DNA from: Candidatus Magasanikiibacteriota bacterium
GTDB lineage: Bacteria > Patescibacteriota > Patescibacteriia > Magasanikbacterales > GWA2-37-8
DNA length: 64,000 nt
Reading direction: 5' to 3'
NCBI GenBank assembly: GCA_041665405.1
Contig: JBAYIZ010000001.1
Span: 90,618 to 154,617, forward strand
The position numbers and the translations under genes are program-made. Below are positions 6,497 through 54,559 of this stretch, piece after piece. Position 1 is the first letter of the stretch; each line of letters starts with the position of its first letter. Below the pieces are notes generated by a model. It was not told the DNA's origin and ran no database searches. It saw nothing but the letters and a program-made list of their open reading frames with translations.

Positions 6497-8569
6497 ATGG
6501 CTAAGAATGCAAAACCGGTCGTCAGTTTGTCCCGTTCTCAGATAAAGTGGAGAGTATTGTGGATTGGTATATTATTGGTTGTTTGTGGGCTCATTGTGGC
6601 TCCAACTTATGCTAACAAAGGTGTTGATTGGGTAAACAACAAAGTTAATTTAGGTTTGCCACGTTTGCCAGACAAAGGCTTCAATTTAGGCCTAGATTTG
6701 CAAGGTGGCGCTCATTTGGTTTACCAAGCAGATACCACACAGGTGCCAGATGCCGATCGTGTTGACGCAGTTGAAGGTGTACGTGATGTTATCGAACGTC
6801 GTGTACGCGGTGGTCTAGGTGTTGCTGAACCATTGGTGCAAACTACCAAAGTCGGTGAGGATTTTCGTATCATCGTTGAATTGCCAGGTGTGACTGATGT
6901 AAATACTGCTATTAAAATGATCGGTGAAACTCCAGTTTTGGAATTCAAAGAAGAAAACAACGAACCTCCACGTACTTTAACTACGGAAGAAAAGAAACAA
7001 ATGGATGATTTCAACAAAGCGGCAGACAAAACAGCCAAACTTGCTTTGAAAGAAGTAGTGAGTGGTGTAGATTTTGCCACTGTGGTTTCCAAATATACTC
7101 AAGATGAAAAAAGTAAAAACAATGGTGGCGATTTAGGTTTTGTTACAGAAACACTTTATCCAGAAATTTTTACTTGGGCTAGTACCCATAAGGATGGTGA
7201 AGTAAGTAAAGAGTTGGTAAAAAGTTTTGAAGGCTTAAATATTTTAAAAAGAATTGGTGAACGTCAAGGTGAAAAACAAGTTGACGCGGCTCATATCTTG
7301 GTTTGTTATAAAGGTGCCGAGCGTTGTGATAACCCACTATATACTCAAGAAGAAGCCAAAACTAAAATTACTGAACTGAAAGCGAAAGCCAATGCTGAAA
7401 ACTTTTCTCAATTGGCCAAAGAATTTTCTACTGAACCAAATGCAAAAACAAGTGGTGGTGATTTAGGTAAATTTGGCAAAGGTCAAATGGTGCCTGAATT
7501 TGAAACGGCTGTTTGGGATGCACCAGTAGGTACTATTTCAGCTGTGGTAGAAACACAGTTTGGCTATCATATTATTTATAAGAAAGGCGAAGATTTTGCC
7601 AAAGAATATCAAGTGGCTCGTGTGTTTATTAAAACACAGCAAGAAGCTGATATTGTACCTCCAACAGATCAATGGAAAACCACCGGTTTGTCTGGTAAAC
7701 AGTTGAAACGAGCAGAAGTAACTCAGGATTCACAGACTGGTCAGACTCAGGTAAATTTGAATTTTGATGAAAATGGTACAAAACTATTTGCTGAAATAAC
7801 TGCAAGAAATGTTGGTAAACCGGTGGCTATTTATTTGGATGGTCAGCCAATTAGTATTCCAAAAGTAAATGAAGCAATCACAAGTGGTAGTGCAGTAATA
7901 TCTGGTGGATTTACTTTACTCGAAGCCAAACAACTTTCTCAAAGATTGAATTCTGGCGCATTGCCAGTGCCAGTTGAGTTGATTAGTCAACAAAAAGTAG
8001 ACGCTACTTTGGGTGTTGATTCATTGACCAAAAGTTTCCATGCTGGTTTGATTGGTTTGCTGGGCGTGATGTTATTCATGGTTATTTATTATCGTTTTCC
8101 AGGTTTGTTATCTGTATTTTCTTTGATAGTTTATGCATTACTAAGTTTGGCTACTTTCAAATTATTGGGAGTGACCATCACTTTGTCTGGTATCGCCGGT
8201 TTTATCTTGTCTATTGGTATGGCTGTGGACACCAACGTTTTGGTGTTTGAACGTCTAAAAGAAGAATTACGTTCTGGTAAAAATTTACATTCCGCTTCCG
8301 AGGAATCGTTCCGTCGCTCTTGGCCGTCTATTCGTGATGGTCATATTGCTACTTTGGTAAGTTGTGTATTCTTGGTCTGGTTTGGTACTGGTTTTGTGCA
8401 AGGTTTTGCTGTGACGTTGGCCATTGGTGTGTTGTTCAGTTTGTTCACCGCTATTGTGGCTACTCGCGCTGTCTCACGTCTGATTTTCAAATTCTTTAGC
8501 GAATATGGTAATTGGATGTTTTTGGGCCATGTTAAACCAGATTCTTCTTCTGAAATTATAAACAAATAA
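6497..8569 (+). CDS. secD: Protein-export membrane protein SecD carrying an inserted parvulin-type (PpiC) peptidyl-prolyl isomerase module in the periplasmic P1 head
   Basis: SecD motifs (GLDLQGGAHLVYQ..., VELPGVTDV..., and after aa ~400 TGLSGKQL...VAIYLDGQPISIPKV..., followed by 6 TM helices). Between aa ~155 and ~395 (nt ~6960-7680) there are parvulin signatures: GGDLGFV... and AAHILV...SGGDLGKFGKGQMVPEFE...TQFGYHIIYK. Confidence 0.85.
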   Translation: MAKNAKPVVSLSRSQIKWRVLWIGILLVVCGLIVAPTYANKGVDWVNNKVNLGLPRLPDKGFNLGLDLQGGAHLVYQADTTQVPDADRVDAVEGVRDVIERRVRGGLGVAEPLVQTTKVGEDFRIIVELPGVTDVNTAIKMIGETPVLEFKEENNEPPRTLTTEEKKQMDDFNKAADKTAKLALKEVVSGVDFATVVSKYTQDEKSKNNGGDLGFVTETLYPEIFTWASTHKDGEVSKELVKSFEGLNILKRIGERQGEKQVDAAHILVCYKGAERCDNPLYTQEEAKTKITELKAKANAENFSQLAKEFSTEPNAKTSGGDLGKFGKGQMVPEFETAVWDAPVGTISAVVETQFGYHIIYKKGEDFAKEYQVARVFIKTQQEADIVPPTDQWKTTGLSGKQLKRAEVTQDSQTGQTQVNLNFDENGTKLFAEITARNVGKPVAIYLDGQPISIPKVNEAITSGSAVISGGFTLLEAKQLSQRLNSGALPVPVELISQQKVDATLGVDSLTKSFHAGLIGLLGVMLFMVIYYRFPGLLSVFSLIVYALLSLATFKLLGVTITLSGIAGFILSIGMAVDTNVLVFERLKEELRSGKNLHSASEESFRRSWPSIRDGHIATLVSCVFLVWFGTGFVQGFAVTLAIGVLFSLFTAIVATRAVSRLIFKFFSEYGNWMFLGHVKPDSSSEIINK

Positions 8570-8571
8570 TT

Positions 8572-9489
8572 ATGACTATACCATTTATAAAATATTCTAA
8601 ATATCTATTAGCTGTGAGTGCAATCGTGACAGTCATCAGTTTGGCTTCATTATTCACTTGGGGTTTAAAACCTGGTATTGATTTTACTGGTGGTTCATTG
8701 CTTGAAATTAGTTTCAGTCAAACTCGTCCAGATAATCAAGTTATGGAACAGGCATTTGCTGATCTTGATCATAAAAATATCGTAATTCAAAAAACTGGAG
8801 AAAAAGGGATGATTATTCGAACAGCCTTTTTGCCAGAAAATGAGCATCAAACTGTTTTAAAAGGTTTGCGTACACAATTTGAAAAAGACGGAAACACATT
8901 GCGTGAAGATCAGTTTCAAACAATTGGCGCCGCCGTTAGTAAACAATTACGTCAGCGTTCTATCTGGGCAGTATTTTTGGTCATTGTAAGTATTATTGCT
9001 TTTGTGGCGTATGCATTCCGTACTGTATCATTCCCAGTAGCTAGTTGGAAATATGGTGTGACTGCTATTATTGCCGCTTCACATGATGTGTTGTTGGTAA
9101 TTGGTGTTTTTGCTTTCTTGGGACATTATAATAATGTAGAAGTAGATATTGGTTTTGTGGTGGCTTTATTGACCGTATTGGGTTATTCAGTACAGGATAC
9201 TATTGTAGTGTATGATCGTATCCGTGAAAATTTATTACGTCGTCGTAATGTTAGTTTTAGAGAAATGGTAGATATTGGTTTGAATGAAACTTTGATGCGC
9301 TCAATTAATACTACATTAATTACCATGATTCCTCTTTCTGCCTTGTACTTCTTTGGTGGAGCAACAATCAAGAATTTTGCTTTGGCTCTATTGATTGGTA
9401 TCGCTAGTGGTGCTTATTCTTCCATTTTTGTGGCCAGCCCGTTGTTGGCTTATGTAGATAAATGGCAGAGAAATAAAGCTACAAAATAA
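8572..9489 (+). CDS. secF: Protein-export membrane protein SecF
   Basis: 305 aa starting 3 nt after the secD stop. N-terminal TM helix, periplasmic domain, C-terminal TM bundle typical of SecF. Confidence 0.85.
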   Translation: MTIPFIKYSKYLLAVSAIVTVISLASLFTWGLKPGIDFTGGSLLEISFSQTRPDNQVMEQAFADLDHKNIVIQKTGEKGMIIRTAFLPENEHQTVLKGLRTQFEKDGNTLREDQFQTIGAAVSKQLRQRSIWAVFLVIVSIIAFVAYAFRTVSFPVASWKYGVTAIIAASHDVLLVIGVFAFLGHYNNVEVDIGFVVALLTVLGYSVQDTIVVYDRIRENLLRRRNVSFREMVDIGLNETLMRSINTTLITMIPLSALYFFGGATIKNFALALLIGIASGAYSSIFVASPLLAYVDKWQRNKATK

Positions 9490-9507
9490 TACTAAAGATT
9501 CAAAAAC

Positions 9508-9540
9508 TCTCTCGCTTAAATCGGGGGAGTTTTTTCTTTT
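9508..9540 (+). terminator. Intrinsic terminator after secF
   Basis: ACTCTC-TCGCTTAAATCGG-GGGAGT hairpin followed by TTTTTTC. Confidence 0.5.
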
Positions 9541-9599
9541 TATCATTTTATGCTATACTATCTAGTAGTATAGTTAGAATTAATTTAGAATTTTTTAAT

Positions 9600-9776
9600 A
9601 TGTCTGGTCACGGTCATAGCGAAAGTGGTATCCGCCATATGATTGCCTTTCTAGGCACATTGGTGACAGTGTTTGCCTTTTGGGGAGGTTATGTTTCGGG
9701 CGCCCAGGGTTGGTGGTGGACAGCTTTTGGTTTGATAATTGTTTACGGTGGAATATATAAAATTATCGACAATTAA
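9600..9776 (+). CDS. Small (58 aa) two-TM membrane protein, below the ORF-track length cutoff
   Basis: ATG at 9600 and stop at 9774-9776. Product MSGHGHSESGIRHMIAFLGTLVTVFAFWGGYVSGAQGWWWTAFGLIIVYGGIYKIIDN. Ends 3 nt before the 9780 ORF, suggesting operon coupling. Confidence 0.4.
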   Translation: MSGHGHSESGIRHMIAFLGTLVTVFAFWGGYVSGAQGWWWTAFGLIIVYGGIYKIIDN

Positions 9777-9779
9777 TCT

Positions 9780-11216
9780 ATGGAGCCGATTACTTTTTCA
9801 TCCACTTTTGGCTTTTCGATCAATTGGGAGTTTTGGTCTTGGATGTTTTCTCAGCCACCTGCCGATTTGATTGCATATTTGTTCGCCATTATTGGTTGGG
9901 TAATTTTGGTTTTGATTTGTGTTAGTTTGGGGTCACAACTGTTGGCGCTTTATCGAGCAAAAAAAGCGGATGGTCAGTGGGAGTGGGTGTTGTTGGCCGT
10001 CGATGTACCGCCATTATTTATTCAATCACCAAAAGCCGTAGAGCAGATTTTTGCTCATCTTAGTGGGGCAAAAGTTAGTATTCGTTTGTCAGAAAAATAC
10101 TGGATTGGTAAACGACAGAAAAATTTTAGTTTTGAAATAATTTCTATTGAAGGTTATATACAGTTTTTAATTCGTACTGAAATAGCTTATCGCGATCTAG
10201 TAGAGGCGGCGGTTTACGCTCAGTATCCAGAGGCAGAAATTACCGAGGTGGAGGATTATGTGGATATGATTCCAGGATCTTACCCAAGTGCAACCCACCA
10301 TATGTTTGGAGTAGAATTCCAATTAGCTGATGTTGATGCTTATCCTATTCGTACTTATCCAAACTTTGAATATAAAATTAGTAAAGACGAAGTTTTTAGC
10401 GATCCAATGGCAGCGATTTTGGAAAATTTTTCACGTATTGGGCATGGCGAACATTTTTGGTTACAGATCATTATTGAACCAGTCGGTAATGATTGGAAAA
10501 CAAAAGGTATCCAGTTGGTAAAGGATATTATTGCCGGTCATATTGGTCATCATGGAAATTTCTGGGGTGATGTAGTAGCTATGATTGGGAATATTCCGCT
10601 GGCTATTATGAAGGAATTTTTTAAATATTTGAATGCCTCAGAACATGAAGAAGAGGAAGTTCACAAGGAAATGCCTGGCAAATTGACCGATGTATCTCCA
10701 GGTGGAAAAAGCACCATCGAGGCGATTGAGGACAAGATTGCCAAATTAGGTTTCAAAACCAAGATTCGCGCTTTGTATGTGGCGAGAAATGAAGTTTTTA
10801 ATCCTACCCGTTGTGTAGATGGTTTTATTGGTTCACTTAACCAATTTCATATTCAAAGTCGCAATGCAATTATCCCGCGTTTTATTACGCATACTCATTT
10901 TCTTTTTTACAACCACATGAGAGAGATCTGGGTACAAAATAAATTTTTTAAAGCTTTTGCCAAGAGAAAAATAAAAGTGGGTGGTACTCCTTATATTTTA
11001 AATATCGAAGAGCTGGCAACACTGTGGCATTTCCCATTACCGTTTGTGAAGACTCCGCTTGTACAAAAGGCTGGTGCCAAACGTGGCGAACCACCAATGA
11101 ACTTGCCGATAGAAGTGGAATCTGGACCGCTAAGACCAAAGGTGAGGCCGACTGGACAGGTTGGGGAGACTGTAGAGGTTCCGGAGCAGGAACCAGAGGA
11201 ATTGTTATATGGATAG
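9780..11216 (+). CDS. ATPase-less paralog of the N-terminal (membrane plus middle) domain of the T4SS coupling-protein-like gene at 21153-23714
   Basis: Alignable blocks with the 853-aa protein: AQYPEAEIT/AQYPHAEIT, DPMAAILENFSRI/DPLVAILNPLSKM, FWLQIIIEPVGNDWKTKGIQLVKDI/ALIQFIVRPATSHWRKQGVHMIRDI, ATLWHFP/AGLWHMP. It stops exactly where the Walker-A ATPase begins in the paralog. Confidence 0.75.
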   Translation: MEPITFSSTFGFSINWEFWSWMFSQPPADLIAYLFAIIGWVILVLICVSLGSQLLALYRAKKADGQWEWVLLAVDVPPLFIQSPKAVEQIFAHLSGAKVSIRLSEKYWIGKRQKNFSFEIISIEGYIQFLIRTEIAYRDLVEAAVYAQYPEAEITEVEDYVDMIPGSYPSATHHMFGVEFQLADVDAYPIRTYPNFEYKISKDEVFSDPMAAILENFSRIGHGEHFWLQIIIEPVGNDWKTKGIQLVKDIIAGHIGHHGNFWGDVVAMIGNIPLAIMKEFFKYLNASEHEEEEVHKEMPGKLTDVSPGGKSTIEAIEDKIAKLGFKTKIRALYVARNEVFNPTRCVDGFIGSLNQFHIQSRNAIIPRFITHTHFLFYNHMREIWVQNKFFKAFAKRKIKVGGTPYILNIEELATLWHFPLPFVKTPLVQKAGAKRGEPPMNLPIEVESGPLRPKVRPTGQVGETVEVPEQEPEELLYG

Positions 11217-11234
11217 AGAGGTGGAAAACAAAAA

Positions 11235-11335
11235 ACACCACCTACATAATGACTTTTTCGCTTTTTTCACCCGCGAGGGTGAAAGGATGAGCCTCGGGCT
11301 CATAACCCGCTCAAAAGTAATTATGTAGGTGGTGT
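11235..11335. repeat. Copy 1 of a ~62-nt GC-rich structured element (core 11253-11315) nested inside a 16-bp inverted repeat (ACACCACCTACATAAT / ATTATGTAGGTGGTGT)
   Basis: Core CTTTTTCGCTTTTTT-CACCC-GCGA-GGGTG-AAAGG-ATGAGCC-TCG-GGCTCAT-AACCCGCTCAAA is shared with 21043-21104. Hairpin 1 shows compensatory substitutions (CACCC/GGGTG versus TTGCCC/GGGCAA) around a GCGA tetraloop. Confidence 0.6.
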
Positions 11336-11373
11336 TTTTTTGTTTGTGTTTAGCGAAAATAGTGGGTGTGACA

Positions 11374-11402
11374 TTGACAAAAGAGGTGATTTGTGTTATA
11401 CT
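11374..11402 (+). promoter_or_regulatory. Sigma70-type promoter (TTGACA, 17-nt spacer, extended -10 TGTTATACT) driving the high-GC small ORF
   Basis: TTGACAaaagaggtgatttgtgtTATACT, followed by a structured ~140-nt leader (three hairpins) before the ATG at 11547. Confidence 0.5.
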
Positions 11403-11479
11403 GATTTGTTATTTGAAAATTTAATCAAATTTGACCGGTATCTAATTGTGTTGAGTAATCTCAATAGAATTTGGTACCG

Positions 11480-11960
11480 GTTTCGAGTGTCTTTCCCGCC
11501 GCATACTTTGCGGCCCATCCGGCGCTCATTGCGCCAGAGGTACGAGATGAGCCTGTTTTTCTTCTTCGCTCTGATGTCGATCGTCGCCAACGCTTTGACC
11601 TTCAAGGGGAAGAAATTCTCCTGGTGGGGGTTCGCGTTTGTCTTCGTGGGAGGGGCGCTCGCGGCTGTCGCGTTTTCGGAGAGCCGGGAACTGCCGATCC
11701 TCGACCACTCGTGGCAGGTCGCCGCCAGCTGGGCAGGCCTGTCCGGACTGATCGGACCGGTCGTTCAGGTGGCGTGGTTCTCCACGAACCCGCCCAAGTG
11801 CTCCGAGTGCGGGCGCAGCTGTTCCACCCACGAGAAGGTGGCGCGCATCTAGGTTTTTTGGACTTTTTCCTCCCCGAGTAAAATCGGGGGCAGTGTCGCA
11901 GACGGTCGAGCTAGTTTATTTAGCTCCCATCTGTGCCTGAAAAAAGTCCGCAATCCCTGA
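11480..11960. other. Compositionally anomalous high-GC cassette 1
   Basis: Abrupt shift from AT-rich host sequence to GC-rich sequence with GC-ending codons. Bounded by a host-like promoter at 11374 and the terminator at 11993. Confidence 0.6.
11547..11852 (+). CDS. Small (101 aa) membrane protein encoded by a GC-rich foreign-looking gene
   Basis: ATG at 11547 with an AGAGG Shine-Dalgarno 10 nt upstream. Product MSLFFFFALMSIVANALTFKGKKFSWWGFAFVFVGGALAAVAFSE... has 2-3 TM helices and a CSECGRSC tail. Codon usage is GC3-rich, unlike its neighbours. Confidence 0.6.
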   Translation: MSLFFFFALMSIVANALTFKGKKFSWWGFAFVFVGGALAAVAFSESRELPILDHSWQVAASWAGLSGLIGPVVQVAWFSTNPPKCSECGRSCSTHEKVARI

Positions 11961-11992
11961 GTGTCTAAAATATTTAGATATTGAGGAAAACA

Positions 11993-12022
11993 AAAAATCA
12001 CCATTTAATTGGTGATTTTTTG
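11993..12022. terminator. Bidirectional intrinsic terminator
   Basis: AAAAAATCACCA-TTTAAT-TGGTGATTTTTT, lying between the + strand cassette and the - strand gene ending at 12034. Confidence 0.65.
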
Positions 12023-12033
12023 TTTGTGTTTTT

Positions 12034-12555
12034 TTATTTTGTTTCTTGAACAATAGTTTTTGGTGATAGATTTTTTATCATTTCATATCCGCCTACCAGA
12101 CAAGTTACAAAAAAGATATTACCTAATAATTCATTTCGGAAAAAGGGAAGTGCCATATAATAACTTTGAACTAAGCCAGATAAATCGTGTGTGTACATTG
12201 TTCCAAAAGCCCAGACAGCTGTGTTGGTCAAAAGAAAGAAAACTACACTACCAGCGAATGTACTCAATGCAACATTGGTGAATTTAATATTATTGCGAAT
12301 TGCGCGTCCGATTAATACCACTAACAAGAAACCGATATACACCGAAGCCATAATATAAATACTATAAAATCCAATAAAGATGTCGCTGATAAACATTGCA
12401 ACTATTGGTAACCATAATGATTCTTTTTTTGTTAAATACAGTCCACCAAATAAAGCGATGGCACCAATAGCGGTAAAATTTGCTGGGTGCGGTACAAAAC
12501 GAGTAGCGATGGCTAGGATGATGAGAAGATAAGTGAGGACATTTTTGTTTATCAT
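12034..12555 (-). CDS. Small polytopic membrane protein (5-6 TM) resembling an ECF-transporter S-component. It could be a corrinoid- or vitamin-specific substrate-capture subunit.
   Basis: 173 aa, wholly hydrophobic helices, size and topology typical of ECF S components. It lies downstream on the same strand as the DUF4430 / transcobalamin-like genes. The functional assignment is inference. Confidence 0.4.
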   Translation of the reverse strand: MINKNVLTYLLIILAIATRFVPHPANFTAIGAIALFGGLYLTKKESLWLPIVAMFISDIFIGFYSIYIMASVYIGFLLVVLIGRAIRNNIKFTNVALSTFAGSVVFFLLTNTAVWAFGTMYTHDLSGLVQSYYMALPFFRNELLGNIFFVTCLVGGYEMIKNLSPKTIVQETK

Positions 12556-19460: not shown

Positions 19461-21005
19461 CTAAATCACTTCACCACCAAAATCTGCAGCCAAATTATTT
19501 AAATCTGTTTGATCACTGTTGCATATCTCTGGGGTTTTGACACTGCATGACACTCTTATTCTTTCGCCAATTATTTTTTCAATTTCATCCTCCAGACATT
19601 TTTTTGTTTTGCATTCTTCTATTTTGTCTTTGTGAATAGCAAAATCAAAAATAAGGCTTAGCCCAGTTTCATCCAAACTTGCCAAGGTACAACTTTTTAG
19701 TACAAAAGTTAATGAAGGTATTTTTTGTGACAAGCCTGATATAATTTCATTCCATTTGGTTTTCATTTCTTCCAGAGAAGTTTTTGGTGGTGAAATGTGG
19801 GTAAGATTTGTGATAGCACTCTTTATGGAAGTTATAATCGTGTTTGGTTTTGCGGTTTCAGTTTTTTTTTCTGTTTGTTTGGTATCACTTTTTATATCGG
19901 GAGTGTTTGTTTCAATATTATTATTGCAAAATTGAACTGTAAACAATTCTAATGGAAGTTGTGGTATTGGCGATTGTTTGATCTCACGTCTGCGTAGTGA
20001 GATTGAGTCAATCATTGCGATAATTTTTGGAGTTAAAAATTTAGCGGACAATTTTTTAATTTTCGCGAGGGTATCCTTGTCGGTGTTGATAGTGGAGGAA
20101 ATATCATAGCCAGTCTGAGCAATCATTGTTTGGCGCAAAATATCGATAAGATCCAAAGCGAATTGTTCTAGATTGTTGCCTTCGCTGGTAATTTTATTTA
20201 AATGTTCAATAGCAGATTTTGTGTCAGAATCGGCAATAAATTCTATAAACTTTAAAACAGAATTTAAATCAGAAGAGGGGAGGAAGGCAACAATATCTTC
20301 GTCCGTTATTTCCTTTAAATTTAATGTTAAAATTTGTCCGAGTAAACTCTCGGCGTCTCTCATACCGCCTTCACTTTTATCAATAATTTTTTCTAAAACT
20401 GTTTTATCAACTTTAATTTTTTCCTGTTTGCAAATACTTTCCAACTTTTTTAACATGCCTTCGCGGGAAATTTTTTTGAAAGCAAAACGCTGACAGCGAG
20501 AAATAATAGTAGCGGGTAATTTTTGGAGTTCGGTGGTGGCTAAAATAAATACCACGTGAGCAGGTGGCTCCTCGATAGTCTTGAGCAGGGCATTGAAGGC
20601 ACTGGTAGAAAGCATGTGCACCTCATCAATGATAAAAATTTTGTATTTGGATTGAGTTGGTTTGAACTGAGCGTTTTCAATAATATTTTCACGAACATTA
20701 TCAACGCCAGTGTGAGAAGCCGCATCAATTTCTATTACATCAATATTGCGTCCTTGAGCTATCTCAGTACAAGACGAGCATTCGTTGCATGATTCAAATT
20801 GACATTCCTTGCGATTTTTGCAATTTAGAGCTTTGGCCAAAAGACGGGCAATAGTAGTTTTGCCAACCCCGCGCGGACCAGTAAAAAGATAAGCATGAGC
20901 AATTTTGTTGCCAGCTATTTCATTGGTGATGGTTTTGACAATATGTTCCTGATCGTGAATATCAGCAAAAACCTGTGGGCGATATTTTCTATACAGTGTG
21001 GACAT
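19461..21005 (-). CDS. dnaX: DNA polymerase III subunit gamma/tau
   Basis: YRPQVFADI..., Walker A GPRGVGKTT, Zn-module CKNRKECQFESCNECSSC, DEVHML box. Confidence 0.93.
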   Translation of the reverse strand: MSTLYRKYRPQVFADIHDQEHIVKTITNEIAGNKIAHAYLFTGPRGVGKTTIARLLAKALNCKNRKECQFESCNECSSCTEIAQGRNIDVIEIDAASHTGVDNVRENIIENAQFKPTQSKYKIFIIDEVHMLSTSAFNALLKTIEEPPAHVVFILATTELQKLPATIISRCQRFAFKKISREGMLKKLESICKQEKIKVDKTVLEKIIDKSEGGMRDAESLLGQILTLNLKEITDEDIVAFLPSSDLNSVLKFIEFIADSDTKSAIEHLNKITSEGNNLEQFALDLIDILRQTMIAQTGYDISSTINTDKDTLAKIKKLSAKFLTPKIIAMIDSISLRRREIKQSPIPQLPLELFTVQFCNNNIETNTPDIKSDTKQTEKKTETAKPNTIITSIKSAITNLTHISPPKTSLEEMKTKWNEIISGLSQKIPSLTFVLKSCTLASLDETGLSLIFDFAIHKDKIEECKTKKCLEDEIEKIIGERIRVSCSVKTPEICNSDQTDLNNLAADFGGEVI

Positions 21006-21042
21006 ATATTATTATTACATTTATGGCAGTCTGTCGGATTGT

Positions 21043-21104
21043 CTTTTTGCTTTTTTTGCCCGCGAGGGCAAAAGGATGAGCCTCGGGCTCATAACCCGCT
21101 CAAA
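21043..21104. repeat. Copy 2 of the ~62-nt GC-rich structured element
   Basis: CTTTTTGCTTTTTTT-GCCC-GCGA-GGGC-AAAAGG-ATGAGCC-TCG-GGCTCAT-AACCCGCTCAAAG. Lies ~50 nt beyond the stop of the 21153-23714 gene and upstream of the dnaX start. Confidence 0.6.
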
Positions 21105-21152
21105 GAAAACCCGCCAGCCTGTGACGTACTGTGGCATATTTTCAGCTATATT

Positions 21153-25399: not shown

Positions 25400-26640
25400 T
25401 GCTTATTTGAGCCCAGAATAGCACACCGTTTCGTAAATCGGTGCGGCCGCCCTAAATCGCTTGGCCAGTTGGTTGAGTTGATAAAAGGGCAAACATGTCA
25501 GGAGTAAATCATGAGGAAGATTTTGTTCGTCCTGGTGGTCGCGGTTCTGGGTGCTTGCTCGCAGGAGCCCTGTACCAGCTCGGAAGAGTGGTGCACCGGT
25601 GTCGATACGTCGTCCGATTCGGACGTGTCGTCCGACGCGCAGACCGACTCGGGCATCAAGAAGCAGGAGTGCCTCGTGGCGACCGACTGCGATGACGGCA
25701 ACGCGTGCACTTTCGACTACTGCGACGGCGGCAACCCATGCACCTTCGAATATTGCAACCCCCGCGTCTGTCGGCACATTGCCATCGAGGGGGCGATTTG
25801 TGACGACGTCATCGCCGACGCCGACACCACCGCCGACGTCATCGCCGACACCGCCGCCGACACCGCCGACGTCGGCCCGGCACTCGAATGTGCCAAGGCC
25901 ATCGACTGCGACGACAAGAATCCGTGCACATTCAGTTTCTGCGACGCTGGCGTCTGCACACACATGGCCACCACGGACACGTGCGACGACGGCGATGTTT
26001 GCACGGTGAATGATGTTTGCTCGGCTGGGAAGTGCGTCTCTGGCGCTCCGGTCGTATGCGACGACAAGAATCCGTGCACCACCGACTCGTGCGACGCGGC
26101 CAAGGGTTGCGTGTACGCGGCTCCGGTCGTATGCGACGACGACAACGCTTGCACGACCGACGGTTGTGCGGCTGGCGCCTGCACCCACGTCGCCGTCGAC
26201 TGTAACGACGACAAGGTCTGCACCGCCGACTCGTGCGACCCGGCCAAGGGTTGTGCTCACAAGAACCTTGACAGTATCTGCAACGACGGTGACGCCTGCA
26301 CGATCGATAAGTGCGTCAACGACAAGTGCGTATGGTGGCCAAACCCTTGTGACGACGACAACGTCTGCACCGACGATTCGTGCGACGCGGTCAAGGGTTG
26401 CCAGAACAAGTCAACGATGGCGCCATGCGACGACGGAGACGTCTGCACGACGGGCGACACCTGCGGCAGTGACATGTATCAGCAGTGTGACGGAACTCCC
26501 ATCCTCTGCGATGGAGAACAGGCCAACGAGGAGAACTGCCACCCCGAGTTTGGCTGCTTCTAAGCCAACAACCTCCACACCAACCGAGGTAAGACAGTCG
26601 CAAGATCGTCCCAACTCGTTTTCATCATAAAAATTGTGGT
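25400..26640. other. Compositionally anomalous high-GC cassette 2
   Basis: GC-rich block with GC3-biased codons between an AT-rich region containing a promoter-like sequence/CorA terminator and the terminators at 26590-26697. Confidence 0.65.
25511..26563 (+). CDS. Cysteine-rich tandem-repeat lipoprotein (about ten ~26-aa repeats, C-D-D-x-N-x-C-T-x-D-x-C-x(3-5)-G-C), a paralog of the protein at 54712-56352
   Basis: AGGAG Shine-Dalgarno. Lipoprotein signal MRKILFVLVVAVLGAC (lipobox LGAC). Repeats CDDGNACTFDYCDGGNPCTFEYC, CDDKNPCTFSFCDAGVC, CDDGDVCTVNDVCSAGKC, and so on. Confidence 0.75.
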   Translation: MRKILFVLVVAVLGACSQEPCTSSEEWCTGVDTSSDSDVSSDAQTDSGIKKQECLVATDCDDGNACTFDYCDGGNPCTFEYCNPRVCRHIAIEGAICDDVIADADTTADVIADTAADTADVGPALECAKAIDCDDKNPCTFSFCDAGVCTHMATTDTCDDGDVCTVNDVCSAGKCVSGAPVVCDDKNPCTTDSCDAAKGCVYAAPVVCDDDNACTTDGCAAGACTHVAVDCNDDKVCTADSCDPAKGCAHKNLDSICNDGDACTIDKCVNDKCVWWPNPCDDDNVCTDDSCDAVKGCQNKSTMAPCDDGDVCTTGDTCGSDMYQQCDGTPILCDGEQANEENCHPEFGCF

Positions 26641-26660
26641 GAGAACGAGGACGATCTTGT
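26590..26660 (+). terminator. Long imperfect hairpin after the Cys-rich gene
   Basis: CAAGATCGTCC ... GGACGATCTTG with an inner CTCGTTTTC ... GAGAACGAG pairing. Confidence 0.45.
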
Positions 26661-26665
26661 CTAAA

Positions 26666-36757: not shown

Positions 36758-36800
36758 ATAAAAAAGGCACGGCCAAAAGTAACTTTTGGCTGTGCCTTTT
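36758..36800. terminator. Bidirectional terminator between ppsA and the helicase gene
   Basis: AAAAAGGCACGGCCAAAAG-TAA-CTTTTGGCTGTGCCTTTTTT. Confidence 0.7.
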
Positions 36801-36805
36801 TTGAT

Positions 36806-38672: not shown

Positions 38673-39017
38673 TCTAATCTGGGCGATTGTAATAATTCAG
38701 TCTAGTATGTTGTGATATATAATCTTTCATACTTTATAAAATGATTATAAATCATGTTTTGGTATTTGTCAAGAAAAACAAAAACCGCCCTTGCCTAAAT
38801 TCGGAAAATTCATTCTGAACTTGGGCAAGTTGGGCGGTCGATGTGTCTGACCATTTCCTCCTTGTCGGCTCGGGTGAGCCATATGTACATCCTTGCGGAC
38901 GGAACGACGGTCAGCGTCGCTCTACCCCACCGTATTTCGGAGGATGGGGTGTTTGATATTAGCCTTTCGCTTCCACGGCGTCAGCAAGCTTTTGTTCAAG
39001 CGTGCGAAATCGGGCCT

Positions 39018-39554
39018 CTACTTCTTGCCGCGGAAGCGTTGGAGCACCTTCTTGTTGATGCTGTATTTCGAGGGCACGGTGCCCTCGAGGCAGGCTCTCG
39101 CGACCGCTTCGCTCGGGAAGAGCCGCACCCACGTACGGCGTTGCACCTGCAGCTTTTCGAGGATCACTCGTTTGCCGTTGGTGAAGCCGTCCATTCCGAA
39201 GAGGCTCTCATCCGTGAGAGTGATCTCGCGACGGACCTGCTCCGTGCCGATGTCCTCGTCGAAGTAGAGCTTGCCGAAGTCCATCAAGTCGCCGGCGTCG
39301 CGGAACTGATCGACCATGGTGGGCTCGAGCCCCGGAACGAGCGACATCATGAAGCTCTGCAACCGCTCGGCTTCGAAGATTCCCTCCTTGGGAGCGACGA
39401 CGAAGCTCATCGTCTGGCTCCAGTAGCCGTCCCTGTGGGGGATGTAGTTGATGTCGCAGCAGTTCACCACGACGATGGACGTGTTCCCCTCGAGAGCTTC
39501 GCGAACCTGCGAGAGTTTGTTCATCTTTTGATCTCCCTTCGAAGTCTTATCCAT
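39018..39554 (-). CDS. Hypothetical protein (178 aa), GC-rich foreign-looking gene
   Basis: The minus-strand product has a natural composition (MDKTSKGDQKMNKLSQVREALEG...). The overlapping plus-strand ORF is A/L/R/E-rich, typical of an antisense artefact. A promoter lies at 39678-39707. Confidence 0.6.
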   Translation of the reverse strand: MDKTSKGDQKMNKLSQVREALEGNTSIVVVNCCDINYIPHRDGYWSQTMSFVVAPKEGIFEAERLQSFMMSLVPGLEPTMVDQFRDAGDLMDFGKLYFDEDIGTEQVRREITLTDESLFGMDGFTNGKRVILEKLQVQRRTWVRLFPSEAVARACLEGTVPSKYSINKKVLQRFRGKK

Positions 39555-39677
39555 GCGTTCGGGTACGCTTGGATGTGGTGATTTGGTTCAAAGAACTCAA
39601 AACAGTATTTCGCCCGATCTGCTTCGACGACTTAGGGCGTTACAAAGATAACGAACTAAATCGTCAAAACAACTTGT

Positions 39678-39707
39678 AATGTTACCATAAAAATGAGCTT
39701 TCGTCAA
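39678..39707 (-). promoter_or_regulatory. Sigma70-type promoter (minus strand) for the 39018-39554 gene
   Basis: Minus strand TTGACGaaagctcatttttatggTAACAT. Same architecture as the promoters at 11374, 25324 and 52075. Confidence 0.45.
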
Positions 39708-39765
39708 CCCCCTTGCCCTAAAGTAAAAGCACACTATCGTAATAGTGTGCTCTATCTAAAAAATT

Positions 39766-39788
39766 TGGCGGGTCGGACGGGACTCGAA
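39766..39788 (-). repeat. Duplicate of the tRNA-Asp 3' end (23 nt, TGGCGGGTCGGACGGGACTCGAA), a candidate att/recombination scar
   Basis: Identical over 23 nt to 40925-40947. The adjacent downstream hairpin (AAAAGCACAC...GTGTGCTCT at 39722-39752) parallels the terminator next to the intact tRNA (AAAAGCAC...GTGCTCT at 40878-40908). Confidence 0.7.
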
Positions 39789-40086
39789 ACCTTCCTCCAC
39801 ACCTTATAGATTAGCAAAAAAATATGTATTTTGCTAAGACTACACATTATTCATTATCGTTGTTAGTCATTGTTAGTATCAATTAGTAAACTTTCGTCAC
39901 CTTTTTGGGCAACCGGTGGGCAACACTTCTGGAGGAGGTGACGAGGTTTATTAAAAACAGATATAAAAAAACCGCCAACCACTCTGTCCTATATACAATA
40001 TTATAATTATATACAAAACAGTTCGGTGGTCGGCGGTCTCTTTCAAGCCCGCCAACTCCTTACTGCGTCCTTTCGGGCTAGCTGGA

Positions 40087-40728
40087 CTAGCGGGGCCTGC
40101 GGGGGATCTCGACGCCGAGGAGGTGCTCGAGGAGGGTGATGTCGAGAATGGTCATCCCCAGCGGTCCGAATGGCATGTCGATGGACGGACGACGGTCATC
40201 GACGGGCGCGTCGTTGATGGGCAGACCGGCCGCCATCATCTGCTTGAGGAGCATGATGCCGTCGAGGACATGCATCACAACTTCTCGCGAGTTGATGAGA
40301 TTGGCCACCTTCTCCAGGCCTTCGGCCATGCTGTGGATCTCCTTGCTGAATGCGCCGTCTTCGCGGACGATCTGGCCACGAGGGGTGGGGTAGGAGCCAT
40401 CCTTGCATACCGCGAAGCGGAACGCCGGCATGAAGTCCGCGAAGAATTCGTACGCGGACACCTTCTCGAACACCTTCTCGATCGTCTGGCAAACGCCAGC
40501 TTCTTCGATCTGCGCGAGGATGTCCAGCATCTCCTGCTCTTCGATCTTGCCGTCGTTAGCCACTGCTTGCAGCGTGGCCTTGGCGTTCTCGATGAAGAGG
40601 AGTGTACCTTCCAAGGGGACGCCTTCCAGGTGGATCTCGCCATAGGCGATACCCAGCTCATTGAGCAACTTCTGCTTTTTCCCGACGATGAACATGGCTG
40701 TCTCCAGAGCAGAACATCCACGCATCAC
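40087..40728 (-). CDS. Hypothetical protein (213 aa), GC-rich foreign-looking gene
   Basis: The minus-strand product is plausible (MMRGCSALETAMFIVGKKQKLLNELGIAYGEIHLEG...). The plus-strand overlapping ORFs are Arg/His-rich artefacts. Confidence 0.6.
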   Translation of the reverse strand: MMRGCSALETAMFIVGKKQKLLNELGIAYGEIHLEGVPLEGTLLFIENAKATLQAVANDGKIEEQEMLDILAQIEEAGVCQTIEKVFEKVSAYEFFADFMPAFRFAVCKDGSYPTPRGQIVREDGAFSKEIHSMAEGLEKVANLINSREVVMHVLDGIMLLKQMMAAGLPINDAPVDDRRPSIDMPFGPLGMTILDITLLEHLLGVEIPRRPR

Positions 40729-40924
40729 GCGTGCCCTCTTCGATGTTACTCCGTTGAATGGAAGGTTGTGAGGGGGGAGAAAAATCCTTTTTTAGACTCT
40801 TTTCCCCGCTCATAACTCTGATTTAAAAGAACAATATAATACATTCTCACAAAAAGAGGTAAAAGTCAAGTATATAAACAAAAAAGCACTTTCTTTCGAA
40901 TGGTGCTCTTTATGCGAAACTCCC

Positions 40925-41001
40925 TGGCGGGTCGGACGGGACTCGAACCCGCAACTTCTGCCGTGACAGGGCAGTGCTCTAACCAGTTGAACTACCGACC
41001 C
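40925..41001 (-). tRNA. tRNA-Asp (anticodon GTC), CCA encoded
   Basis: Minus strand GGGTCGG-TA-GTTC-AACTGGTTA-GAGC-A-CTGCC-CTGTCAC-GGCAG-AAGTT-GCGGG-TTCGAGT-CCCGT-CCGACCC-G-CCA. A terminator hairpin lies at 40878-40908. Confidence 0.9.
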
Positions 41002-42890: not shown

Positions 42891-43294
42891 GTGGAGGTGG
42901 CGAGAGTTGAACTCGCGTCCAGATAATTTTGAATATACCTTCTACATGCTTAGTCCACTTAGGATTTAACTATAGAGATAATAGGTGAACGAAACTCTCT
43001 ATGAGCGAGCCAGATTTACTTTCGGAATAAAGCATCTGACAATACCTTAAACCTACATCTCGTAAGTGACACCGTGTTGCGCTACGAAATCTCACGCAGG
43101 CGATGGGAAGCAACTATTAAGCTGCTACCGGAGCAAAATTGCAACAACCTTCGCCGATGAAGGCGTTGGTGAAAGCAATTTTAGCTTTTGAAAATAAGTT
43201 TGCACTTATAATTTGTTTTAGGGATTTATGAGGGCTAAAACATCCTCAGCATGCGAGTGTACGCAGAAACTTCTGTCAAAAGCACGGCACCCCC
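42891..43294 (-). ncRNA. ssrA: tmRNA (SsrA), ~400 nt
   Basis: 5' end GGGGGUGCCGUGC..., 3' tRNA-like end GGACGCGAGUUCAACUCUCGCCACCUCCA (T-arm plus acceptor). Internal tag reading frame ending ...NFAPVAA-stop. Lies 3 nt after the smpB stop. Confidence 0.8.
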
Positions 43295-51980: not shown

Positions 51981-52006
51981 AAAGCCCTGAAATTCAGGGC
52001 TTTTTT
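51981..52006 (+). terminator. Intrinsic terminator after the giant ORF
   Basis: AAAGCCCTGA-AAT-TCAGGGCTTTTTT. Confidence 0.7.
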
Positions 52007-52074
52007 AATTTGTATAGATTGGCTAAAATAAAGCAAAATATGTCCAAAAACTACCTTTTATTCGTAATGGGGTA

Positions 52075-52103
52075 TTGACAAGGTTCCTATATTATGCTAT
52101 ACT
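52075..52103 (+). promoter_or_regulatory. Strong sigma70-type promoter (TTGACA, 17-nt spacer, TGCTATACT)
   Basis: TTGACAaggttcctatattatgcTATACT in the AT-rich spacer ahead of high-GC cassette 4. Confidence 0.5.
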
Positions 52104-52109
52104 TATCCG

Positions 52110-52243
52110 TTATGCTGATGAATAGGTAAAGACTGTCAGCAAGCATCTATTTATAGATCTGAGAGAGGTCTAGAGATAGATAGGTCAAGATACTATATAT
52201 TATCATTATATATTGCCGACTCTCTCACCATGGAGAGTTTTTT
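52110..52243 (+). ncRNA. Candidate ~135-nt small RNA or leader bounded by the promoter at 52075 and an intrinsic terminator (ACTCTC-TCACCATG-GAGAGT followed by T7)
   Basis: No credible ORF. Promoter-to-terminator unit entirely within noncoding DNA. Confidence 0.3.
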
Positions 52244-52348
52244 TACATCATTGTCAGCCAGAGTTTAGTGAATGAGAATTTCTTTAAACTCGGACTGATA
52301 AAGTCCATTAAGTTCTTTACAATATATACGCAACTACTAAAAAATCAT

Positions 52349-52395
52349 CTGTGTGGGAGTAAGTCTGTGATAGTCATAGCTTTACTCCCACACAG
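52349..52395. repeat. 14-bp perfect inverted repeat CTGTGTGGGAGTAA / TTACTCCCACACAG with a 19-nt spacer, exactly at the AT-to-GC transition of cassette 4
   Basis: The motif CTGTGTGGGAGT recurs at 54569-54580, again upstream of a cassette gene. Confidence 0.6.
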
Positions 52396-52537
52396 GTGGA
52401 GGTGAGTGACTTCGGTTGCTCTTCTCCCTGGGTTAGGGAGAAACGTCGGAAGATCGTCGAAACGTTCGTCAACGTCCGAAAGTCTCAACAAGTCGGTAAC
52501 CAACCACGACTGTGAGAGACACCTCAAGGAGTCCCAG

Positions 52538-53320
52538 ATGAAGTGCCCGAACTGCTCCCATGAGATCGCTGTCAATCCCACCCCGAACAACTGCCCGGAG
52601 TGCGGGTACCTGCTGCTGACCGCTCCGATCGCGATGCGGCCGCCGCGTCTGGTCGGTTCCTTCGATTGCGTCCAGCAGGAAGAGGAGCCGCGCCAGCAGC
52701 CTCGTCCCGCCCAGCGCCAGCCGGAAGTCGCCGCGCCCAAGAAGTCGTTCCCGTGGCTGCTCACGCTCATCGCGATTTTCGCGGTGGTGGGAGCGGCCGC
52801 CTCGGTCGGCCACTGGATCCACTGGGGAGAGGTCGGAACGACCGTCGGCGACATGGCGAGCAGCGCCAAGACCCACGAGAACCAGACCGTCACCCGCGTC
52901 AACAGCGCGATCGTCGGTTCGGTTGGTTACGTGGTCGCCCAGGCGCGCGTCAACGCATCCGCCATTCGTGGCGATGTGGCTGGTGTTCTCGCGCAAGAGA
53001 ACGTCAACGCATCCGCCATTCGCGGCGACGTGGCTGGCGCTCGAAGTGACGTGGCCGCGGTGAAGGCTCAGATCATGGCCAATGACTCGGTGATCCGCCG
53101 GGACATCATCAACCAGGGTCAGAGCACTCGCCGGGCCATCTGGCGCATCCGCTCCGAGCAAGTCCGCCCCAACGCGGTCGACAACAACACGGCCACCAAG
53201 GCCGACGTCGACCAGGCCAAGCGCGATTTGCAGGACTGGATGACGGCCAACCGGATGAAGGTCGTCGTGGCCCCTTCGGCCGCCCCGACTCCGACTCCGA
53301 CGGCCGCTCCGGCCCGCTAG
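52538..53320 (+). CDS. Zinc-ribbon (CPNC...CPEC) single-pass membrane protein with an external Ala/Val-rich domain containing a tandem 11-aa repeat (NASAIRGDVAG, twice) and a PT-rich tail
   Basis: AAGGAG Shine-Dalgarno 7 nt upstream of the ATG at 52538. MKCPNCSHEIAVNPTPNNCPECGYLL, TM helix WLLTLIAIFAVVGAAASVGHW. Architecture is reminiscent of zinc-finger anti-sigma-factor-like proteins (inference). Confidence 0.6.
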   Translation: MKCPNCSHEIAVNPTPNNCPECGYLLLTAPIAMRPPRLVGSFDCVQQEEEPRQQPRPAQRQPEVAAPKKSFPWLLTLIAIFAVVGAAASVGHWIHWGEVGTTVGDMASSAKTHENQTVTRVNSAIVGSVGYVVAQARVNASAIRGDVAGVLAQENVNASAIRGDVAGARSDVAAVKAQIMANDSVIRRDIINQGQSTRRAIWRIRSEQVRPNAVDNNTATKADVDQAKRDLQDWMTANRMKVVVAPSAAPTPTPTAAPAR

Positions 53321-53701
53321 CCTCCCCGGCTAGCAGTAGTTGCGTAGGGGACCAGGTGCGACTTTCGCCCTGGTCCCCGCCAACTTCTCCTCTGTCTTTA
53401 GAGGAGACACTATTATCTGACGACGCTGATTATTGAGCGTCGAAAGGTTAGTGGCAAGACAAAAATCCCAAACAGGGTGCCCGAGCAATCGGGCCACTGG
53501 TTTAGATAATAAGAGATTGTTATCTGAAACGGTGGTATAAAAACCATCTCGTTCCTTTCAATATTATCCCAGCAAAATTTCCCATCGCGAAGAAAGAGTA
53601 TTGTAATAATATTTTTTCTTAGCGATGGGAGAATGTCCTCCCCACGTGAGCCGGAACCGCTCCGGTAAATATGGTTGGGGACCACCCACAAGGAGAGGCA
53701 G

Positions 53702-54298
53702 ATGCTTCGCAGTTTCCTCGTGGCGACCATCGTCGCCATCACCGCGTTCGCGGTCGGGGCCAAGCCGTGCTTGGCGCAAGAGCAGGATACCGTCGTCACC
53801 CCCCAGCCGAACCAGACCGTCGAGGTCACGGTTTTGCCTGGTGGTGATGTGACGGTGGTCACCCCTCCCACCATCACGAAGCCGTCGTTGATTCACGCAG
53901 AACTCGGCCTCAAGGCCGGCTACATCGCGGGCAACGCGCCCTCGATGGTGGTCATGCCGAACGTCGGCTTGACCCTGCGTCTCTCGAACGACTGGTTCCT
54001 TCGCGCCTCGGCCGCTGGTGGCCTCGCTCGGCATGGTTCCGTGACCGACTTCAACGTCGGCCTCGGGGTGTGGGTTTCCGATTACTTCCGCCTGACGCTT
54101 TCGGGTGGGCAGATTGTCCAACGGACACCTGCCTTCGCCTGGAACCAGGGCGCGCTGGTCGGATCTCTTTCCGCCGATTACTTCCTCGGCCCCCACGCGT
54201 TCGTCGGGGTGGAAGGTTTCGGTGGTCCGAGCTGGGACCAACTCGATCAGCTCAGTAGCTCCCTCGGGGGCAAGCTGAACATCGGCTGGCGTTTCTGA
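53702..54298 (+). CDS. Outer-membrane beta-barrel-like protein (OmpA-like / OmpW-size, ~8 strands) with signal peptide and a C-terminal aromatic signature
   Basis: Signal MLRSFLVATIVAITAFAVGAKPCLA. Alternating hydrophobic beta-strand pattern. C-terminus ...GGKLNIGWRF ends in Phe, the classic OMP sorting signal. Confidence 0.55.
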   Translation: MLRSFLVATIVAITAFAVGAKPCLAQEQDTVVTPQPNQTVEVTVLPGGDVTVVTPPTITKPSLIHAELGLKAGYIAGNAPSMVVMPNVGLTLRLSNDWFLRASAAGGLARHGSVTDFNVGLGVWVSDYFRLTLSGGQIVQRTPAFAWNQGALVGSLSADYFLGPHAFVGVEGFGGPSWDQLDQLSSSLGGKLNIGWRF

Positions 54299-54505: not shown

Positions 54506-54559
54506 CCTGCGCGGGGAATTTAGCATATATCCAAATATATTCTGAATTCCCCGCGCAGG
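54506..54559. promoter_or_regulatory. 15-bp perfect inverted repeat CCTGCGCGGGGAATT / AATTCCCCGCGCAGG with a 24-nt AT-rich spacer, ~150 nt upstream of the Cys-rich gene
   Basis: Seen directly. Could be a terminator for the OMP-like gene or an operator. Confidence 0.5.

Follow-up and report, generated by a model that had tools for sequence, protein, structure and literature searches.

Dispersed hairpins with a conserved three-way-junction apex at gene 3′ ends in Candidatus Magasanikbacteria

In a stretch of 64,000 nucleotides from the Candidatus Magasanikiibacteriota contig JBAYIZ010000001.1 (here called the window), a near-identical, GC-rich motif of about 62 nt occurs twice on the + strand, at 11253-11315 and 21043-21104, each time beside a gene with a DUF8128 domain. 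The locus therefore raises the question whether the motif belongs to these genes, one of which encodes a VirD4-like coupling protein, as proposed in a preliminary description of the sequence, or whether it is a repeat of another kind. We found more than 110 distinct copies in genomes and metagenomes of Candidatus Magasanikbacteria, members of the candidate phyla radiation (CPR/Patescibacteria), with a structure supported by covariation and a placement at the 3′ ends of unrelated housekeeping genes. On balance, and with moderate confidence, we favour the view that these copies are a dispersed family of structured hairpins which act in cis as an RNA cap at transcript 3′ ends, behave like mobile repeats, and are unlinked to coupling-protein genes.

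Structure, covariation and size of the family

The two window copies were found where the preliminary description had placed them. Over about 62 nt they differ by C/T in the triplet YGC and by two fully compensated pairs in hairpin 1 (UCACCC-GCGA-GGGUGA in copy 1, UUGCCC-GCGA-GGGCAA in copy 2), and their 31-nt 3′ part, GGATGAGCCTCGGGCTCATAACCCGCTCAAA, is identical (11285-11315 = 21074-21104; 0 expected, 100 shuffles). The same three-way junction was predicted for both, with -26.0 and -26.3 kcal/mol (z about -3). Copy 1 is enclosed by an inverted repeat of about 29 nt per arm, larger than the 16-bp terminal repeat described before, and its whole hairpin of 124 nt reaches -60.3 kcal/mol (z -11.4); an A-run on its 5′ side and a T-run on its 3′ side give it the layout of a bidirectional terminator. 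The outer helix of copy 2 has three non-standard pairs in the covariance-model alignment, and that of its ortholog L010 is a perfect 22-bp stem. Searching the 64-kb window with the covariance model retrieved these two copies only (scores in Table 1; next match 17 bits).

In each copy a long helix, P1, carries at its top a conserved three-way junction of about 54-62 nt; the whole element measures about 90-130 nt. Read from 5′ to 3′, it comprises the P1 5′ arm, (U)CGC, the hairpins P2 and P3, the segments AACCC, GC and UC, and the P1 3′ arm. P2 is a 10-bp helix with the loop GCGA, written as U5-6 plus 5 bp, GCGA, 5 bp plus AAAGG, while P3 has 6-8 bp and the loop CUCG, UUCG, CUUG, UGCG or UCG. 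The junction does not vary in the sequences CGC-U6, AAAGG and AACCCGCUC (strands CGC-U, AACCC and UC/UC), and about 25 junction and helix nucleotides do not vary across many species. P1 has a median of 26 pairs, about 90% of them Watson-Crick out to 25-30 bp. Its inner 9-13 bp are common within subfamilies (TAYAACCACC/GGTAATTRTA, ATAATTATC/GATAATTAT or GATAATTT/AAATATC), and its outer arms are unique even among the copies compared within one metagenome-assembled genome (MAG), JBAYGI01.

The element is a structured nucleic acid under selection for pairing. In a model-fitted alignment 94.8% of the cells were paired, compared with 72.7% in shuffles, and 26 of the 29 pairs showed changes on both sides (682 cells). 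The covariation score was 0.537 versus 0.142, and none of 500 shuffles reached 0.537; slid control alignments paired at no more than 49%. RNAalifold, applied to a plain MAFFT alignment, independently yielded the same helices P1, P2 and P3 together with two invariant U.G pairs at the base of P2. A variant subfamily (L023, L026, L116), in which UUUUUU/AAAGGA is changed to UUUCCU/AGGGAA (GCUUUCCU...AGGGAA), supports the lower part of this helix. Compensated changes also separate orthologs, namely three P2 pairs between copy 2 of the window and L010 and three P1 pairs between L014 and L056. The compensatory changes in hairpin 1, from which selection on structure had been concluded earlier, are thereby borne out by covariation in more than 110 copies.

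For the size of the family, a pattern with exact P3 gave 14 sites in genome contigs, six of them in the Magasanikiibacteriota MAG JBAYGI01, one in a Magasanikbacteria MAG from Kiruna, and the remaining seven in two MAGs labelled 'uncultured Gammaproteobacteria' (CAYZHG01, CAZXEV01). This label is probably wrong, because the loci concerned (L006, L008, L009, L012-L015, L130) share synteny and proteins of 85-96% identity with Magasanikbacteria loci. A metagenome scan with P2 and P3 left free returned at least 112 stretches; after removal of about 14 chance matches, at least 111 unique copies with at least 77 unique cores were counted. The covariance-model search proposed in the preliminary description gave at least 114 hits in 100 sources, diverged and expanded variants included, and at least 11 copies were present in one MAG. 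The Logan contig L002 ends inside the element, as expected if the repeat breaks assemblies.

The earlier statement that the motif matches no known RNA family also stood. An Rfam 15 scan of the whole window detected only the transfer-messenger RNA (tmRNA) and two tRNAs, and for the motif no family reached the gathering threshold, including hammerhead, twister, twister-sister, pistol and hatchet ribozymes. Permissive scans (E up to 10) of the surroundings of copy 1 and of one expanded variant gave only chance miRNA-type hairpins far below threshold. The element is not described in the literature searched.

Several alternatives for the core were tried and dropped. Pairing of the 5′ UCGC with the GCGA loop into a pseudoknot is wobble-compatible and shows no real covariation; a small open reading frame starting at an AUG inside P3 is countered by the covariation of P3; ARAGORN found nothing tRNA-like that would point to such an origin; and neither a promoter inside the core nor a -35/-10 pair split around P1 held on inspection.

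Some copies depart from the standard fold. In expanded variants (L068 1080-1240, L082 52-200, L092 1251-1406), about 73 extra nucleotides between P3 and AACCC form two hairpins; one, GCTAC...GTAGC, has an AT-rich tip, the other is a short stem whose loop is of GAAA type, and a five-way junction results. In L054 (6977-7071), the stem of a plain terminator, ATCCCGAC/GTCGGGAT, is identical to a rare P3 variant of L036, L071 and L095; this could be coincidence or reflect an exchange of P3-like hairpins with host hairpins.

Placement at gene ends and turnover

For scoring the flanking genes, copies were oriented so that GCGA reads 5′ to 3′. The contexts were (+,+) in 31, (+,-) in 29, (-,-) in 11 and (-,+) in 5 cases, so that 71 of 76 copies adjoin a gene 3′ end and divergent contexts are rare. 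With orthologs collapsed, the tandem groups comprised 21 sense, 5 antisense and 4 mixed ones, next to 19 convergent and 4 divergent groups; for the sense bias within operons (21 vs 5) the binomial p is about 0.002. A- and T-tracts proved specific to convergent contexts: among 29 convergent copies, 26 have a T-run, 24 an A-run and 22 both, while only 11 of 31 tandem sense copies have a T-run and 20 lack a U-tract. The layout of an intrinsic terminator, a stem followed by a U-tract, is thus present in copy 1 and in 26/29 convergent copies, and absent from copy 2 and from 20/31 tandem sense copies.

The genes next to the copies have little in common. The 152 flanking genes fall into 100 unrelated clusters, the largest with four members. 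Sampled upstream genes encode a methyltransferase, RnpA, an aminoacyl-tRNA-synthetase-like protein, ClpP, a Mur ligase, pyruvate kinase, a nucleotidyl transferase, RuvA, an F420-ligase-like protein and RF2. This bears directly on the proposal of the preliminary description that the motif, as an oriT/nic-like DNA site or else a small RNA of its own, belongs functionally with the adjacent TraD/VirD4-like paralogs, in which case every occurrence might lie beside a TraD-like gene. Both window copies indeed adjoin DUF8128-domain genes, and the copy between the VirD4-like gene and dnaX (the VirD4|dnaX site) recurs in the MAG JBAYGI01. Among all flanking genes, however, VirD4/DUF8128 neighbours are only the window's own and that ortholog, L010; the motif is otherwise scattered without gene association and embedded in terminator-like hairpins, and such scatter was among the outcomes that, by the preliminary description, would count against its proposal. 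Moreover, the element is missing from four DUF8128 and five VirD4-like orthologous loci, the VirD4-like gene belongs to the conserved chromosomal genes and has housekeeping neighbours (CorA and CysS to one side and dnaX to the other), and viral contigs (IMG/VR) gave chance pattern matches but no covariance-model hit. No relaxase was among the Pfam results for the examined window genes, no search aimed at relaxases having been made. A link to conjugation is contradicted by these data, and we consider it extremely improbable; the neighbourhood of the two window copies had been misleading.

The immediate positions had been described correctly. Copy 1 starts 14 nt past the stop codon of the DUF8128 gene, in sense orientation, and copy 2 lies between the stop of the VirD4-like gene and the start of dnaX, antisense to both. 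The term 'paralog' needs qualifying for the 478-aa DUF8128 protein, which is 100% identical to WCV83_00505: its alignment with the 853-aa VirD4-like protein is confined to the N-terminal half of the latter (24% identity, E 2e-33), and it lacks an ATPase domain.

At orthologous sites the family is far from static. The core was absent in 36 of 136 syntenic comparisons, and 14 of 43 orthologous pairs were flipped, a few of these being artefacts of adjacent copies. The MITE-like appearance noted for copy 1 (MITE, miniature inverted-repeat transposable element) is to this extent supported, as copies are gained, lost and inverted. The MAG JBAYGI01 is syntenic with the window from 14.5 to 28 kb (VirD4-like protein 91% identical, dnaX 80%); at its VirD4|dnaX site (L010/L063) the arms are homologous, the core is flipped and hence sense, and P2 carries the three compensated differences mentioned above. 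In five other relatives (VirD4-like proteins 79-91% identical) this site has no copy: the spacer measures 3-26 nt in L140, L141 and L143, and the other two of the five have other palindromes there. The DUF8128 site holds a plain terminator, AAAA-CCTCC-loop-GGAGG-TTTT, in L129, L130 and L132 (80-85% identical). In L133 (4425-4460; 75% identical) a 21-nt relic, AACCTGCTCGAAAGTAATTAT, directly follows the DUF8128 stop and matches the 3′ end of the element at 19/21 positions, the rest of the element being deleted.

What an empty site looks like depends on its context. Empty convergent-gene sites hold plain terminators; for example, in L020 the element sits atop an outer stem orthologous to the window terminator at 36760-36805. 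Empty tandem-gene sites are short spacers without a hairpin; L012 reads stop-ATT-ATG where L096 and L059 have about 120 nt, and the indel corresponds to the whole of P1 plus core. Within the window, the outer hairpin of copy 1 (T1, 11223-11351) has a plain duplicate, T2, with which it has GGAAAACAAAAAA and TTTTTTGTTTGTGTTT in common; T2 is an unoccupied comparator in the same genome. Inspection of occupied versus empty sites revealed no consistent target-site duplication, no genome pair being close enough for exact boundaries. As a possible sign that whole hairpins transpose, outer arms were compared among non-orthologous copies: 88 pairs match at 12/16 positions or more versus about 19 expected from shuffles that ignore the positional composition of terminators, and the best such pair (L023/L091) has different cores.

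Could these be ordinary terminators or intergenic hairpins whose shared apex is a functionless, hitch-hiking duplication homogenised by gene conversion? Many copies with A/T tracts at terminator positions, the high turnover, and dispersed 62-nt identities, which could fit gene conversion, would agree with it. We nevertheless judge it very unlikely, since abundant compensatory changes in P2 and P3, in over 100 copies from several species, show selection on pairing. In addition, the junction sequences are invariant between orthologs whose P1 arms have diverged beyond recognition, and the tandem copies without a U-tract are not explained.

Element-bearing spacers look like hotspots for several small elements. 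Other palindromic or tandem repeats occupy sites that hold the element in relatives (L065 2086-2335; L028 3017-3244; L069 10780-10923, also in L046 and L057; L125 7304-7605; L142 4600-4800). In L063 (9530-9665), an unrelated apex with a different core of about 95 nt and its own GCGA hairpin, ATAACGGC-GCGA-GCCGTTAT, sits on an A-run/T-run terminator stem, AAAAATACAGGTGGCACATTC...GAATGTGCCACCTGTATTTTT. It is present in one copy among the loci compared, at a site where the window has a GC-rich island.

RNA or DNA, and relation to known elements

As to function and mode of spread, we infer the following. The core probably acts as a + strand RNA in the sense of the upstream gene, because the GNRA and UNCG/CUUG loops and the U.G pairs occur only there and sense groups outnumber antisense ones 21 to 5; on the opposite strand GCGA, the UUCG/CUCG/CUUG/UGCG loops and both U.G pairs are lost. 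When the element is read as RNA, P2 and P3 would fold first and P1 would then zip up. Where a U-tract follows P1, the hairpin would serve as a (bidirectional) intrinsic terminator; inside operons it would form a stable intercistronic hairpin that either blocks 3′ exonucleases or is cut by RNase III. The invariant junction may be the recognition surface for a putative partner, serving either a role in cis or the copying of the element itself. Spread and turnover would resemble those of a non-autonomous mobile repeat, in some cases landing at the apex of a pre-existing terminator hairpin, and recombination between the P1 arms could flip the core, since these are long inverted repeats.

A number of observations weigh against this account. 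One third of the orthologous pairs are flipped and many sites are empty, so individual copies are not strongly held in place by the host. Insertion into pre-existing terminator loops cannot explain every P1, because empty tandem sites have no hairpin. No transposase or other copying mechanism was identified, transposases not having been searched for systematically. P1 has a recurrent irregularity 7-10 bp from the junction, which contains 50 of the 82 A.C/C.A mismatches of P1 and otherwise A.A, G.A or U.U; it is mostly C.A on the + reading and would be G.U on the - reading. Outside these positions, G.U (26) is not in excess over A.C (32), and such counts are uninformative there for assigning a strand. 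The - strand folds as stably as the + strand, and because of this and the missing G.U excess the pairing constraint looks largely strand-symmetric. Finally, RNA function, termination and processing are all deduced from sequence comparison.

Some of the same points would suit a DNA-level transposon of the MITE/REP/PATE type (REP, repetitive extragenic palindrome), in which a trans-acting enzyme, for instance an HUH/Y1 transposase or RAYT-like protein, would recognise P2, P3 and the irregular P1 in folded single-stranded DNA and transcript effects would be by-products. Presence, absence and orientation vary at orthologous sites, the intergenic sites concerned hold other palindromic repeats in other genomes, the pairing constraint is nearly strand-symmetric, and nearly all pair changes are from Watson-Crick to Watson-Crick. 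The inner arms shared within subfamilies resemble terminal inverted repeats, and the fixed position of the P1 irregularity recalls the extrahelical or mismatched bases used in structure-specific recognition. However, conservation resides in the apex rather than in the ends, and each copy within a genome has outer arms of its own; no consistent target-site duplication was seen on inspection, and no transposase was found, no systematic search for one having been made. GNRA and UNCG/CUUG tetraloops are stability motifs of RNA, and orientation tracks gene direction. A replication-strand bias, the expectation for IS200/IS605-like transposition of single-stranded DNA, was considered and rejected: the element lies on the G-rich strand in 56 of 83 loci, but the bias vanishes in convergent (16 vs 11) and antisense (4 vs 6) contexts and is inseparable from gene direction. 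Such a transposon is therefore unlikely in our view, while deserving attention.

Less probable still is a multicopy, trans-acting small RNA or self-cleaving ribozyme, for which P1 would be a processing stem (e.g. for RNase III) that releases an RNA of about 85 nt from the 3′ untranslated regions and operon spacers of many genes. The number of invariant nucleotides and the covarying helices would fit, as would the near-perfect P1 duplex of 20-30 bp, the sense bias, and the hairpins inserted between P3 and P1 (J3/1) in expanded variants, as seen in functional RNAs. Set against this are the missing Rfam match even at E up to 10, the lack of real covariation in the UCGC/GCGA-loop pseudoknot, the persistence of antisense copies, and a copy number and occupancy that differ among close relatives in a way uncommon for essential RNAs.

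Among known systems, the element most resembles REP/REPIN sequences, Correia/ERIC/RUP repeats and bidirectional terminators, yet it fails the defining tests of each, since its arms are not the conserved part, neither a target-site duplication nor a transposase was seen, and many copies have no U-tract. REP/BIME and REPIN sequences of Enterobacteria and Pseudomonas, associated with RAYT transposases, are extragenic multicopy hairpins at gene 3′ ends and between convergent genes; they are co-transcribed, act as terminators or mRNA stabilisers, and vary in occupancy between strains. The element is likewise a multicopy extragenic hairpin at gene 3′ ends with variable occupancy. REP/REPIN sequences conserve a palindromic arm genome-wide, whereas here the 62-nt three-way-junction apex is conserved on locus-specific arms, the JBAYGI01 copies listed all having different outer arms. 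Neisseria Correia elements, ERIC/IRU and pneumococcal RUP are intergenic MITEs of about 100-150 nt with conserved terminal inverted repeats, defined target duplications such as TA, and insertion polymorphism; their transcript hairpins affect RNase III processing and mRNA stability. The element shares with them the intergenic, non-coding position, the long hairpin and the polymorphism at orthologous sites (36/136 comparisons without core), but only 9-13 bp of inner arm are common within subfamilies, outer arms are unique, and no duplication is evident. It shares A-tract, stem and T-tract with bidirectional intrinsic terminators in copy 1 and 22/29 convergent copies, and its empty sites between convergent genes hold plain terminators; unlike in these, a branched insert of 54-62 nt replaces a loop of 3-8 nt, and most operon copies lack a U-tract.

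Two further systems are more distant. The HMP-PP riboswitch (thiS motif) also nests a conserved RNA fold, an aptamer, in a terminator hairpin, in 5′ leaders of one gene class; the element lies at the 3′ ends of unrelated genes instead, which makes a riboswitch role unlikely. Integron attC sites stand just after open reading frames (ORFs), are recognised by their fold more than by their sequence, have stem irregularities at fixed positions, and may have branched variable tips. They conserve the stem base (R″/L″...L′/R′, GTTRRRY) and vary at the tip, whereas the element does the reverse: its stem bases are locus-specific, and the genes around it are syntenic housekeeping genes rather than cassettes.

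Among interspersed hairpin repeats the family is new in that a branched apex is conserved while the stem varies, in its restriction to CPR bacteria and in the extent of covariation, and it could be a new RNA class. To our knowledge, almost nothing is known about how transcripts end or are processed in CPR/Patescibacteria, whose genomes are tiny and tightly packed. An abundant, strongly covarying gene-end element outside Rfam and the literature searched, which shifts between close relatives, is of interest in this regard. If the core acts as RNA, it would be a candidate for a new class, as a protein-binding fold or ribozyme, with a role in termination or mRNA stability; if it acts as DNA, it would point to an unrecognised structure-specific mobilisation system. 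A more speculative idea, which we put forward tentatively and hold to be possible at best, is that the junction is the active part of a self-propagating structured RNA element, a small ribozyme or a protein-recruiting fold that establishes itself on gene ends and terminators. Such an element would supply termination and processing signals to very compact CPR genomes, and would be a mobile module of conserved apex and variable stem unlike REPs, MITEs and Rfam families.

Coordinates, neighbouring genes and further observations

Table 1. Features of the two window copies, comparator hairpins and adjacent genes (window coordinates).
Feature	Position	Strand	Description
Copy 1, P1 5′ arm	11230..11258	+	A-run, locus-specific CACCACC, inner arm TACATAATGAC-UUUUU; pairs with 11313-11341
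Copy 1, conserved three-way-junction core	11259..11312	+	Covariance model 100.8 bits, fold, family covariation
Copy 1, core 5′ end and P2	11263-11272 with 11277-11286		CGC, then P2; loop GCGA 11273-11276
Copy 1, P3	11287-11293 with 11297-11303		Loop UCG
Copy 1, J3/1	11304-11308		AACCC; GC 11309-11310 pairs with GC 11260-11261; then UC
Copy 1, P1 3′ arm	11313..11341	+	AAAAG-TAATTATGTA-GGTGGTG, then T-run
Copy 2, P1 5′ arm	21027..21047	+	CAGTCTGTCGGATTGTCTTTT; imperfect pairing with 3′ arm, 16/20
Copy 2, conserved core	21048..21101	+	Covariance model 93.4 bits
Copy 2, core 5′ end and P2			UGC, P2 UUUUUUGCCC with GGGCAAAAGG; loop GCGA 21062-21065
Copy 2, P3	21076-21082 with 21086-21092		Followed by AACCC-GC-UC
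Copy 2, P1 3′ arm	21102..21121	+	AAAGAAAACCCGCCAGCCTG; no T-run after it
Plain terminator T2	11985..12035	+	AAAAAATCACCA-TTTAA-TTGGTGATTTTTT; paralogous duplicate of copy 1 outer hairpin (T1)
Plain bidirectional terminator	36760..36805	+	AAAAAAGGCACGGCCAAAAG-TAA-CTTTTGGCTGTGCCTTTTTT; empty ortholog of L020 element site
DUF8128 protein, 478 aa	9780..11216	+	Copy 1 at the 3′ end of its gene; context, not functional partner
VirD4-like protein, 853 aa	21153..23714	-	DUF8128 plus TrwB_AAD_bind, T4SS-DNA_transf, TraG-D_C; context for copy 2
dnaX (DNA polymerase III gamma/tau)	19461..21005	-	Downstream neighbour of copy 2

Upstream of copy 1, the gene order SecD (PPIase fusion), SecF, a 58-aa ORF and DUF8128 is kept across relatives (window 6497-11216; L129-L133), facing a convergent DUF6580 gene. 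Because the conserved VirD4-like protein likewise has DUF8128 as its N-terminal half, sequence comparison suggests that the stand-alone gene encodes a membrane/N-domain paralog of a coupling-type ATPase.

The window contains GC-rich islands (50-67% GC in a genome of about 37% GC) at 11340-11930, 25400-26660, 39000-41000 and 52000-56500. They encode ORFans, one with Cys-rich Dicty_CTDC repeats and the others without a Pfam hit, and they look like inserted gene cassettes. The first carries a strong sigma-70-like promoter, TTGACA-17-TATACT, at 11374-11402, and in L129, L132 and L133 the DUF8128 gene is followed by islands of a similar kind; the island at 25.4-26.6 kb is missing from the syntenic MAG locus L063. 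Direct repeats flank the first island and represent the duplicated terminator (11223-11351 and 11985-12031; a 39-nt repeat, 79% identical), one of the two with the three-way-junction element in its loop and the other plain. Direct repeats as att sites of a 9.8-kb island were also considered, and the idea was rejected: core genes, among them dnaX, tRNA-Gln and a radical-SAM gene, lie in the interval, which has a syntenic counterpart in another MAG. A hairpin module, CGCAAGATCGTCCCAACTCGTTTTCATCATAA...ACGAGGACGATCTTG, recurs at island 3′ ends across loci and genomes (window 26596-26662, L132 5047-5110, L133 5132-5192; 87-89% identical) and may mark an island end or a recombination site.

In L046, a further copy of the element separates the orthologs of the two genes flanking the tmRNA of the window. 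This tmRNA (42891-43294) has an unusually long predicted tag peptide, ANLFSKAKIAFTNAFIGEGCCNFAPVAA.

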